This document shows, in pieces, positions 632 to 21,908 of a stretch of 23,058 bases of DNA. The notes below the pieces were generated by a model that was not told the origin of the DNA, searched no databases, and saw only the letters and a list, made by a program, of their open reading frames with translations. The DNA is from a virus: the IMG/VR virus record IMGVR_UViG_3300017725_001848; one strand, given 5' to 3'. A program made the translations under genes and the position numbers. Positions within the stretch are counted from its first letter, which is position 1; every line of letters starts with the position of its first letter.

Positions 632-1249
632 CTACCTTGTGGGAACAGTAAACACACTATCTCTATAGTTTGCACACAGTTGTTTCCAGTTTGATAACTC
701 ATCACAATGTATGGTTTTTAACAATTGATGATATTCATTAGTGTTACACATCAGCAATTTACCTATATCAATAGTTGTTACTGCACATACTCCATCGTAC
801 TTACTGTAGCTATTACGTTCTGGATCACTGCTAGTACAGGCTATTCTAGTATAATCTAGGTTTAGTACACTACGTTCTACAGTTGTATTGAATGCTACAG
901 TATTCCTTTTAACGAACTGTTGTTTGAGTTCTTCATTCACGTATGGAACTATTAGACTTATGGTATTACTAGCACTGATCAGTTCTATGTCACGGTCTAT
1001 AGCATAATAATTATGAATGGGAAACAGTTTATACACCACATTTGATTTATCATTCCACTGGTTATTCTTCACAGTTGTTTGCCAATCAGCTTCATCATAG
1101 TACCACATTAGATCATCATATGTAGCCCAGTCTAGTTGTGTAGGATTAAATTGTATGTCGTAGTTCTGAAAGCCTTTATGCTGATTGATGAACCAGGTTA
1201 GCCATGTTCCACCAGTTCCTGCATTGTAGCTTACTGAGTATACCTTCAT
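632..1249 (-). CDS. Hypothetical protein, possibly P-loop/sulfotransferase-like
   Basis: 205-aa ORF; N-terminal beta strand plus Gly-rich loop SYNAGTGGTWL resembles a 5'-PSB-type loop; product call weak. Confidence 0.5.
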   Translation of the reverse strand: MKVYSVSYNAGTGGTWLTWFINQHKGFQNYDIQFNPTQLDWATYDDLMWYYDEADWQTTVKNNQWNDKSNVVYKLFPIHNYYAIDRDIELISASNTISLIVPYVNEELKQQFVKRNTVAFNTTVERSVLNLDYTRIACTSSDPERNSYSKYDGVCAVTTIDIGKLLMCNTNEYHQLLKTIHCDELSNWKQLCANYRDSVFTVPTR

Positions 1250-1254
1250 ATAGT

Positions 1255-1262
1255 TATTTATA
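1255..1262 (-). promoter_or_regulatory. T4-type late promoter TATAAATA
   Basis: Exact T4 gp55 consensus 5 nt upstream of ATG 1249. Confidence 0.7.
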
Positions 1263-1292
1263 TGTTATATACCCTGTTTTAAAGCTTCAAGA

Positions 1293-1317
1293 AAAAATTT
1301 GCGAGCCGTGCTTCGCA
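1293..1317 (-). terminator. Probable intrinsic terminator
   Basis: TGCGA-AGCACGGC-TCGCA hairpin followed by AATTTTTT on the minus strand. Confidence 0.6.
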
Positions 1318-1627
1318 GATATAGTGAGAGGGTTGATAAACCCGCAATCTGAGTGTTGAAAACCCTAAACACTACTGTTAATAACAAAGTGCTCCTTTGG
1401 TCACTATCAACAGTAGGACATATAGGTTCGAGGTAACTTCTCTGCACTACATACGGTTGTAAGCTGACACGTATTGTTACGAACTATTAGTATATTACCC
1501 TAATAATAGCTAATTAGGTTTTCCTGGCCTGCTATATAATCCAGGTGCTATAAAATATCTAGGATCGGTGGTTGCTTACTTACGAATAAGGTACGAGCTT
1601 TGCTAAGACTCTTTATTACCGCCTAGT
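1293..1627 (-). ncRNA. Candidate ~330-nt structured non-coding RNA, family not recognised
   Basis: Bounded by a promoter (1633-1661) and a terminator; at least 7 helices found by eye plus a possible long-range loop pairing; no convincing ORF. Confidence 0.65.
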
Positions 1628-1632
1628 TAGCT

Positions 1633-1661
1633 AATATATAAGGGGTTTGGTTATTTGTCAA
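1633..1661 (-). promoter_or_regulatory. Sigma70-type promoter TTGACA-N17-TATATT driving the candidate ncRNA
   Basis: -35 at 1661-1656, -10 at 1638-1633. Confidence 0.8.
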
Positions 1662-1698
1662 CCTATATTAATCCCTATTATAAACCAGGGTATAAAGT

Positions 1699-1727
1699 TT
1701 GATCTTGGTAATCTTTTCGTGTATAAT
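1699..1727 (+). promoter_or_regulatory. Sigma70-type promoter TTGATC-N17-TATAAT, divergent from the ncRNA promoter
   Basis: -35 at 1699-1704, -10 at 1722-1727, upstream of ORF 1761. Confidence 0.7.
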
Positions 1728-1760
1728 ACACAGTATTACAATAAGAAAAGGAACTAAACA

Positions 1761-2012
1761 ATGGAACTAAACACACTAAAACAAAACTATATGATCAGAG
1801 TTAGACCCACTACAAGCACAGGTAGTAACAAAATGTTTGATGTACACTATATAAAAGCTATTAGCAAACAAGACGCACAATCACAATTAGAATCCTCAGA
1901 TTATGATGGGGAGATTATAGATGTATTGGAACCTGGATCAGATGTTTATGGACTTACAAAACATGATATACGAGCTTTCTTTAGACTAAAAGAGATCAAA
2001 AAAAGTCAATAA
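1761..2012 (+). CDS. Hypothetical early protein
   Basis: 83-aa ORF with AAGGA SD and an upstream promoter. Confidence 0.8.
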   Translation: MELNTLKQNYMIRVRPTTSTGSNKMFDVHYIKAISKQDAQSQLESSDYDGEIIDVLEPGSDVYGLTKHDIRAFFRLKEIKKSQ

Positions 2013-20689: not shown

Positions 20690-21895
20690 TTATTTAGGTT
20701 TAACTTTTGATTTAGGACATATTCTGTTACAGATAGTTATATTTTCAAAGTTATTCATAATCTTTTTAAACGCAACACCTGAGATAATTTCATCTCGGGT
20801 GTTTTCGTATATACTCAGTGACTTAACATCTTCATCTGTAATTCCTGCTTCTTTAAAGTTATTCTTTTGATCAACACGCATAAAACAACAAGGCAAATAC
20901 AATCCTTCACTTGATATAAAGTTAGTATAATTTTCCATATTCATACATTGTGGAAAAACACTCTTAGTTTCAATAGCTTCTTTCTTAAATCTAATTGGCT
21001 GTTGAGCAAATTTGTTTAGTTGCCTTGCTTTAAGTTCTAATTCTTTTACCCCTGGCTTATTTTCTATATCAATAACTTTAGTAGTTTTGTCTTTTATTCT
21101 AAGATTATGTGCCTCAGGGTCTTTGTTTTCTATAATTTCTTTTATTTTAAATTGACTTGTTCTTGGTGTAATAGCAATTTTTAATCTAGTAATATGTTTT
21201 TGATATTGAAACTTTCCGTAATATGCGAGAGCTTCTTTTTCTTTCATATAAACATATTCTTCTAGTTTAGTTAAGTTCTTATCAAATTCTTCTTTATTAG
21301 CTAACATTTCTGGAGGAGCTCTATGAGTATGTACTACAACAAATTGAAAGAAGCCTAACTCTCTGGCAGTATCGTATGCAAGTTTCATATCTTCAAAACT
21401 TTGATTATATTTAAAAACAATGTATTTCCATCTAAGTCTAGCTCCATAACTTACTAAAGTTTCTACACCTATTTTGATACTAGGCCAGTCTGCATTCACT
21501 CTATATTTTGTAAAGTTTTCTGGAGTTCCATCTATACTAAAAACAATAAAATCTTGTTTGTTTACTAGCTTACCAATTGCCTCCCAATCTTCTTTTTTAC
21601 GATAACTTCCGTTAGTGTCAAATATAAATCTACCGTTTGGTAGGCTTTTTATAGCTTTTATTACCTTAATTAATTGTGGATGATATAACGCATCTCCATA
21701 CGCACCTGCTAATCTAAAGTCGTAAGCATTAGTGGAATGAAGAAACTCAATTAAATCATCTTCTTTTATATTACCATTGTCCCATTCTTTTCTACGATGT
21801 TGTTGGTATGTTCTAGGACAATTAGGACACTTAATGGTACACTTAGAAGTGAGTTCTAATTCTATTTTATTTGAGACCGGAAATTGATGTTGCAT
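20690..21895 (-). CDS. Radical SAM protein fused to a C-terminal SPASM/twitch-like domain
   Basis: CTIKCPNC, GAYGD, DTNGS, FSIDG; C-terminal PQC...GLYLPCC...CNRIC. Confidence 0.9.
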   Translation of the reverse strand: MQHQFPVSNKIELELTSKCTIKCPNCPRTYQQHRRKEWDNGNIKEDDLIEFLHSTNAYDFRLAGAYGDALYHPQLIKVIKAIKSLPNGRFIFDTNGSYRKKEDWEAIGKLVNKQDFIVFSIDGTPENFTKYRVNADWPSIKIGVETLVSYGARLRWKYIVFKYNQSFEDMKLAYDTARELGFFQFVVVHTHRAPPEMLANKEEFDKNLTKLEEYVYMKEKEALAYYGKFQYQKHITRLKIAITPRTSQFKIKEIIENKDPEAHNLRIKDKTTKVIDIENKPGVKELELKARQLNKFAQQPIRFKKEAIETKSVFPQCMNMENYTNFISSEGLYLPCCFMRVDQKNNFKEAGITDEDVKSLSIYENTRDEIISGVAFKKIMNNFENITICNRICPKSKVKPK

Positions 21896-21900
21896 AAATA

Positions 21901-21908
21901 TATTTATG
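21901..21908 (-). promoter_or_regulatory. Late-promoter motif CATAAATA
   Basis: 5 nt upstream of ATG 21895. Confidence 0.6.

Follow-up and report, generated by a model that had tools for sequence, protein, structure and literature searches.

What is encoded in the 510-nt gap between two divergent genes near one end of this phage sequence, and is it conserved as DNA, as a message or as an RNA in its own right? The window analysed here is a stretch of 23,058 nt from the IMG/VR viral record IMGVR_UViG_3300017725_001848. Working from the letters alone, a first-pass annotation had proposed that the minus strand between positions 1661 and 1293 encodes an independently transcribed, multi-domain structured RNA of ~330 nt, with a possible long-range pseudoknot, and that this might be an undescribed phage non-coding RNA or ribozyme expressed early. 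We collected relatives of the locus and followed the changes among them base by base. The RNA is non-coding, it is more constrained than both of its neighbours, compensatory changes preserve several of its helices, and it is the minus-strand transcript on which the constraint acts. The locus very probably holds a real structured non-coding RNA gene.

Distribution of the RNA and its carriers

Related phage contigs were reached by using the two flanking proteins as queries (83 aa, 1761-2012, plus strand; 205 aa, 632-1249, minus strand). The RNA unit was found in ~45 marine metagenome contigs, which represent 19 distinct variants (alignment A3) and originate from Tara, several other ocean surveys, JGI samples and one NCBI assembly. 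In addition, a 601-base stretch around the element (window positions 1200-1800) is complete in 14 seawater DNA runs from 13 studies. One of the carrier contigs, L036, is 329,779 bp long, and a 72-kb carrier, G003, was assigned a completeness of 21% by CheckV; these two figures point to a probable jumbo phage of ~330-360 kb as the carrier, without a cultured close relative.

Searches in larger collections added few copies. A blastn search against 50,697 phage records was negative for relatives both of the element and of the window's first 4.5 kb. Scans of IMG/VR with four different conserved blocks gave one true contig only, the remaining matches being due to chance, and a scan of JGI metagenomes gave four true loci only, all of them at least 82% identical to the RNA of the window. 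The scan of GTDB genomes produced a single chance match, in a Bathyarchaeota MAG, and no true copy. With the covariance model R1, no paralogue was detected in the window, and no distant copy around the 27-28%-identical relatives of the 205-aa gene or in the whole IMG/VR contigs G001 and G002. The RNA family is narrow: it belongs to one marine phage clade, with at least 81% identity between variants. Covariation in A3 has to be read with this in mind, as the alignment holds only five to six lineages, most double changes fall on one branch (L033-L035), and the high similarity leaves many pairs uninformative.

The variants are mosaics of a few block types (the 5' junction, P4/P5, the flank of P7 and the 3' linker; the helices are described below), as can be seen when L041, L047 and L051 are compared with L023, L013 and L003. 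Such a pattern suggests frequent recombination between co-circulating phages inside the 340-nt unit.

A promoter-to-terminator unit

An early sigma-70-type promoter, GGTTGACAA-N-TATATT, is located on the minus strand at 1633-1663 (-35 element at 1661-1656, -10 element at 1638-1633); taken as TTGACA-N17-TATATT (1661-1633), it matches the consensus at 11 of 12 positions. Promoter, terminator and every complementary segment listed by the first-pass annotation were found where it had placed them. The first 2.4 kb of the window contain four sites of the pattern GGTTGACA-N(15-19)-TATANT, where 0.01 would be expected: 106-136 and 1633-1663 on the minus strand, 2027-2057 and 2362-2392 on the plus strand. 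The promoter of the RNA is one of these four and is therefore a member of the phage's early promoter class, and the first 2.4 kb as a whole have the look of a region of early genes, transcribed in both directions away from a point near position 1700.

Both promoter hexamers are invariant in 19/19 variants, and the spacer between them is variable. In L039-L042, the spacer and all DNA upstream have been replaced and the divergent 84-aa gene is absent; both hexamers, the 4-nt gap to AACUAGG and the RNA unit are still present. Retention of the hexamers and of the RNA start despite the replacement upstream fits the pattern of an autonomous promoter-to-terminator cassette. In L039-L041, at positions 1475-2000, the promoter of the RNA is bordered by a different A/T-rich sequence, which contains a terminator-like A7...T7 motif. 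Wherever the 84-aa gene is retained, an invariant inverted repeat, CCCTGG-TTTATAAT-AGGG (window 1672-1691), separates the two divergent early promoters; it may be an operator or an UP-like element.

The RNA would be ~335 nt long and occupy 1292-1628 on the minus strand, with a predicted start at A1628 or A1627 (AACUAGG...) and its end at the U-run. These limits coincide with those of conservation: sequence invariance starts at AACUAGG, four variable nucleotides past the -10 element, and stops after the U-run, and model R1 matches the window at 1291-1632 with 400 bits. The intrinsic terminator (1292-1317, minus strand; stem 1317-1300, U-run 1297-1292) has a hairpin of -7.1 kcal/mol in 16 variants and of -1.6 kcal/mol in L013, L014 and L044, in which the 3' half reads UUAAAA; since this half is lost, read-through must occur in these three.

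The stretch is represented in six metatranscriptomes (X15-X20). Two metatranscriptome contigs, from two studies, lie wholly within the RNA (1365-1613 and 1372-1607), another (1142-1465) runs from the RNA across the terminator into the next gene, and two cross the promoter. All RNA-library contigs have a depth of 2-4 and show neither transcript ends nor strand; DNA carry-over or read-through may be their source, and at such depth a gap like that at 1761-2012 in X16 and X18 is no evidence. Independent transcription of the unit, as claimed earlier, is supported by the comparative evidence and, weakly, by the metatranscriptome contigs; the RNA-library contig that crosses the terminator and the destruction of the terminator stem in 3/19 variants count against it.

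Strong constraint and absence of coding

Over 136 pairs of loci, the RNA has a mean pairwise identity of 92%; for the downstream 205-aa gene, the corresponding values are 73% (nucleotides), 63% (third codon positions) and 68% (protein). In the 11 loci (55 pairs) that also have the 84-aa gene, the figure for the RNA is 91.5%, versus 84% (nucleotides) and 76% (third positions) for that gene. Compared with near-neutral sites in both neighbours, the element evolves three to four times more slowly. Substitutions and indels are concentrated in loops and linkers (A3 columns 95-101, 137-146 and 312-321), and long blocks are invariant.

Part of this constraint might be sought in a protein, the 3' part of the RNA serving as mRNA for a peptide of 35-60 aa, made from ORF 1265-1447 or from a UUG start behind AAGGAG, possibly type I toxin-like and with its ribosome site hidden in the apex of P7. 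AAGGAG is indeed followed by UUG in the apical hairpin of P7, and a same-frame ORF of 35-37 codons can be read in every lineage. However, the changes in ORF 1265-1447 comprise 18 non-synonymous versus 5 synonymous ones, spread evenly over the codon positions (8/8/7); a 1-nt deletion abolishes the UUG start frame in 12/19 variants, and in 6/19 the C-terminal half is thrown out of frame by a 1-nt insertion. The frame also traverses the terminator, with its stop codon beyond the U-run, and the conservation of its amino acids merely mirrors the invariance of the nucleotides. All three stop codons are present in nearly every frame, and stop-codon reassignment leaves the region closed. The overlapping ORF is non-coding. 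Codon-type conservation, which the first-pass annotation had named as one of the signs that would speak against an ncRNA, is absent, and we regard the peptide reading as largely refuted and give it next to no weight.

Helices kept by compensatory changes

The structure was tested on the 19 variants of A3 by scoring standard pairs per cell and two-sided changes, with 500 shuffles and with partners slid by 1-3 columns as controls. In the revised structure, 98.8% of the cells are paired and seven pairs are changed on both sides, a number reached by 7 of the 500 shuffles; the slid controls give 0-2. Folding energy adds little at this scale: the whole 338 nt fold no better than dinucleotide shuffles (z of -0.04 for the minus and -0.50 for the plus strand), so that a single sequence does not prove structure.

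The 5' end would form a three-way junction (1559-1626, minus strand) made of P1, P2 and P3, which is the minimum free energy fold in most of the variants folded. P1 (1626-1618/1569-1559) corresponds to the first helix of the earlier proposal; the variants are consistent with it, and it is invariant and hence uninformative. P2 (1611-1609/1597-1595) holds the invariant loop motif UAGCA, and its pair 23:37 is A-U in 14 variants, G-U in one and G-C in four. P3 (1593-1587/1582-1577) is closed by a UUCG or UCCG loop. The hairpin that follows, P4 (CCUGG/CCAGG, 1523-1545, minus strand), had been proposed as helix 2 and is now supported: 100% of its cells are paired, and in L033-L035 two adjacent pairs are changed on both sides (U-A to A-U and G-C to U-A). 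The best-supported helix of all is P5 (CCUAAU-UAGCUAUU-AUUAGG, 1499-1518, minus strand; 1518-1513/1504-1499), with an invariant 8-nt loop. All its cells are paired and four consecutive pairs are changed on both sides, giving three versions of the stem (CCUAAU/AUUAGG, CCAAAU/AUUUGG and CUUGGU/ACCAAG).

Of a different nature is the support for P7, a long hairpin (1372-1416, minus strand) in which 12 bp are capped by a CAAAG-GAGCA-CUUUG apex and which had been proposed as helix 4. It alone stands out locally in folding energy (1416-1372, z of -4.35, 0/200 shuffles), and it shows three one-sided switches (C-G/U-G, A-U/G-U and G-U/A-U), with 100% of cells paired in the sense versus 83% in the antisense orientation. 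These wobble states pair only in minus-strand RNA, and the strand is therefore fixed as minus. In L033-L035 the apex has been replaced and is 12 nt shorter; a 15-bp hairpin remains. The GGAG of the apex persists in these variants, but in the stem of a different apex, and they speak neither for nor against the AAGGAG loop as a conserved ribosome-site mimic. Near the 3' end, the hairpin GGGUU-UAUC-AACCC (1330-1343, minus strand; helix 6 of the proposal) is nearly invariant and 98.9% paired, so uninformative, and the variation is consistent both with it and with the terminator.

Not every proposed pairing withstood the comparison. For helix 3 (1484-1426), the segments are present, and its outer stem is contradicted at pair 153:209, which is unpaired in 16/19 variants. 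Hairpin 5 (GUGUU/AACAC) fails at pair 270:283, a U.U in 8/19. The proposed long-range pseudoknot between 1523-1517 and 1364-1358 is unpaired in 9/19 variants at 112:281 and in 6/19 at 115:278, shows no two-sided change and overlaps the covarying stem of P5. The covariation that had been suggested as a check on homologues is thus found, in seven two-sided pairs, though not at 1523/1358. The broader claim of an undescribed multi-domain structured ncRNA has held up (no Rfam match, no coding, covariation, and conservation from start to terminator), with the qualification that its best hairpin, 1518-1499, had been overlooked.

Similar constraint could in principle come from a DNA-level element, such as a regulatory or replication-origin region or an origin primer transcript, or from a cassette recently spread by recombination, with conservation that would not stem from RNA function. 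The locus sits where transcription diverges, conservation extends over all 510 nt between the two genes, including the invariant inverted repeat between both promoters, and the mosaic look of the variants is that of recombined sequences. On the other hand, compensatory changes in P2, P4 and P5 and wobbles that pair on the minus strand only are unexpected for double-stranded DNA sites, substitutions and indels prefer loops and linkers, conservation ends at the terminator, and lineages differ by up to ~19%, more than a very recent sweep would allow. We consider either of these origins of the conservation highly improbable. The earlier argument for RNA rather than DNA palindromes is borne out by the one-sided G-U changes, which pair on the minus-strand transcript only.

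Central domain and candidate tertiary contacts

The central domain (1419-1485, minus strand) contains long invariant stretches (GUAACAAUACGUGUCAGCUUACA). For this part, an alternative to helix 3 was derived, AGYU-CGUA-ACAA-UACG...AGCU together with CGUAUG/YAUAYG, which has a mean energy of -7.9 kcal/mol and 96-100% of cells paired; the corresponding values for helix 3 are a mean of 0.0 kcal/mol and, in the outer stem, 83%. By these predictions the alternative fold would be more stable than helix 3 and fits the variation better, and we keep it as a candidate only.

The invariant loop of P5 might take part in a local H-type pseudoknot (1482-1511, minus strand), in which AGCUAUU (1511-1505) would pair with AAUAGUU (1488-1482) across a variable linker of 9-11 nt. 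Its seven pairs are 100% paired in the 19 variants, with two one-sided wobble changes. A seven-pair run of this kind is expected by chance with P ~0.01-0.07, and the pseudoknot therefore is only a candidate.

A second contact may be drawn over a much longer distance. The P4 loop (window 1541-1528) is variable except on its 3' side, where a conserved GCRGG (A3 columns 103-107) can pair with YCUGC just before the terminator (1319-1315, columns 321-325). This is one of many 5-bp candidates, and it is paired in 19/19 variants, with G-U, G-C or A-U at one of the pairs. A long-range contact at these sites is possible and would compete with the terminator stem. Sites complementary to the invariant loops are not enriched elsewhere in the window. 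The 4-mer AGCA is present six times against an expectation of 2.0 (P 0.0045, uncorrected), an excess that loses its significance once all 4-mers are considered.

The downstream gene and the question of a leader

In all ~45 loci, the RNA lies upstream of a member of the 205-aa gene family and shares its strand, and this includes loci that have lost the other neighbour. The 205-aa protein (632-1249, minus strand) is fast-evolving, with 60-73% identity among relatives, and its sequence matched nothing in Pfam or the PDB. The AlphaFold model of the protein (pLDDT 83) bears a weak resemblance to sulfotransferases (Foldseek probability up to 0.96, TM ~0.45), on which a sulfotransferase-like fold can be suggested weakly, and its N-terminal motif GTGGTW recalls the PAPS-binding loop.

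The constant linkage raises the prospect that the RNA is a cis-acting 5' leader, riboswitch-like or an attenuator, of this sulfotransferase-like gene, so that sensing of a ligand or factor would select a terminator or an antiterminator and thereby set the level of read-through. Several pairings would suit such a switch. GUGUUU (1372-1367) can pair with AAGCAC in the terminator's 5' half, which is invariant even in the variants with the 3' half lost, and two GGGUU segments, that of hairpin 6 and a second one at 1362-1358, could compete for the one AACCC, the RNAalifold consensus having chosen the 1362-1358 form. The RNA-library contig 1142-1465 also bridges the terminator. Yet these alternative pairings lie in invariant columns only, an RNA of ~335 nt and seven or more helices far exceeds known aptamers in size, and distant relatives of the 205-aa gene (27-28% identity) are without such an RNA.

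Furthermore, the gene appears to have an expression signal of its own, outside the RNA. This is TAAATA-N5-ATG (1247-1260, minus strand), in which the spacing is fixed in 19/19 variants and N5 and the 30-60 nt upstream vary; one lineage has a 29-nt insertion between the terminator and this signal, and no Shine-Dalgarno sequence precedes the gene. We liken TAAATA to the T4 late promoter consensus, TATAAATA, and it is from this likeness that a promoter role is proposed: by analogy, TAAATA could be a T4-type late promoter with a start at the A of the ATG, producing leaderless late mRNAs. The same TAAATA-N5-ATG arrangement precedes the fused radical SAM gene at 20690-21895 (minus strand, ATG at 21895, element at ~21896-21906). 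With its separate signal set against the switch-like pairings, a leader of the 205-aa gene, though the strongest competitor of a trans-acting RNA, seems to us unlikely.

Comparison with known RNA classes

At gathering thresholds, Rfam 15 gave no match over the whole window, with 6S, SRP, RNase P, tmRNA, ROOL, GOLLD, OLE, raiA, IMES, manA, self-cleaving ribozymes and riboswitches among the families included. At E up to 10, the only matches were mir-7177 (19 bits versus a threshold of 86) and a Brucella sRNA (9 bits versus 398), both on the wrong strand, and in four variant loci Rfam gave no match inside the RNA. ARAGORN predicted no tRNA or tmRNA in the 23-kb window. The first-pass annotation had not recognised the RNA as tmRNA, RNase P, 6S or SRP, which agrees with these results, and the novelty it had made conditional on the Rfam search stands in the absence of a strong match. 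Its ribozyme alternative fared less well: nothing points to a ribozyme, and in the window no match was found with the Rfam models of hammerhead, twister, pistol, hatchet, HDV or glmS.

The closest parallels are in kind rather than in sequence. ROOL (RF03087) and GOLLD (RF01998) belong to the large, 'ornate' structured RNAs that are associated with phages and prophages (Weinberg et al. 2017, PMC5737381; cryo-EM study, PMC12286853). Like them, the present RNA is a multi-domain, phage-carried molecule with invariant loops and covarying stems, adjoined by no partner gene of known function and standing outside the enzyme and riboswitch classes. Unlike them, it is ~335 nt long, compared with roughly 580 nt (ROOL) and 800 nt (GOLLD), it is not matched by their covariance models, and it is confined to one marine phage clade; its sole hint of self-assembly is the palindromic invariant loop UAGCUA. 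Jumbo phages such as PA5oct also have ncRNAs, which were defined by RNA-seq (PMC7318152). Like these, and like the species 1 and 2 of T4 (rnaC and rnaD), the present RNA would be a stand-alone, stable, phage-encoded RNA of no known function. The two T4 RNAs lie within a tRNA cluster and are ~120-140 nt long, whereas the present RNA is larger and more ornate and has no tRNA gene in 23 kb. The T4 stable RNAs are expressed from host-type promoters.

With riboswitch and attenuator leaders the RNA shares the order of promoter, folded RNA, intrinsic terminator and same-strand gene, a conservation of the RNA that exceeds that of the gene, and the possibility of terminator and antiterminator pairings. 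It differs from them in that the next gene has its own TAAATA-N5-ATG and lacks a Shine-Dalgarno sequence, in that no known aptamer is matched, and in a size and number of domains that exceed those of the known classes. By the general yardstick for structured ncRNAs, compensatory changes above the controls, the RNA qualifies, on the basis of few lineages. It is a new RNA family of a known kind of object, that of the ornate phage RNAs, T4 stable RNAs and jumbo-phage ncRNAs, with a narrow distribution.

A possible role early in infection

We favour the view, to which we assign a probability of about 0.6, that this RNA stands alone, is made early and acts in trans, with its invariant loops in contact with a partner. 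Judging from the sequence, host RNA polymerase would start transcription at the phage's early promoter, one of the GGTTGACAA...TATAnT class, and would stop, in most variants, at the predicted intrinsic terminator. The transcript would fold into the 5' three-way junction, P4, P5 with its possible local pseudoknot, the conserved central domain, P7, and the 3' hairpin with the terminator. In early infection it would then serve, in trans, as a structured scaffold or decoy, and its invariant single-stranded loops (UAGCUAUU, UAGCA and UGUCAGCUUACAAC) would make the contacts with a protein or another RNA.

A bolder reading would give this RNA a class of its own among the ornate phage RNAs. It would not be a regulator but would work as an RNA machine or assembly, in the form of a particle by which a host factor is captured at an early stage of infection by the jumbo phage. 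In such a particle, the P5-loop pseudoknot and long-range contacts such as GCRGG/YCUGC of the P4 loop would bring about compaction, and the invariant palindromic loop UAGCUA might allow self-pairing. We think this very unlikely.

The slow evolution of the sequence and the presence of the phage in seawater metagenomes of at least 13 studies make it very likely that the RNA does something important early in infection. Structured phage RNAs without a known function are a growing and poorly understood class, and with ~335 nt and defined boundaries the present RNA offers a compact target for structure probing and cryo-EM. If early RNA genes of this promoter-to-terminator design are a feature of marine phages, RNA-based takeover of the host, or RNA-based counter-defence, may be common among them.
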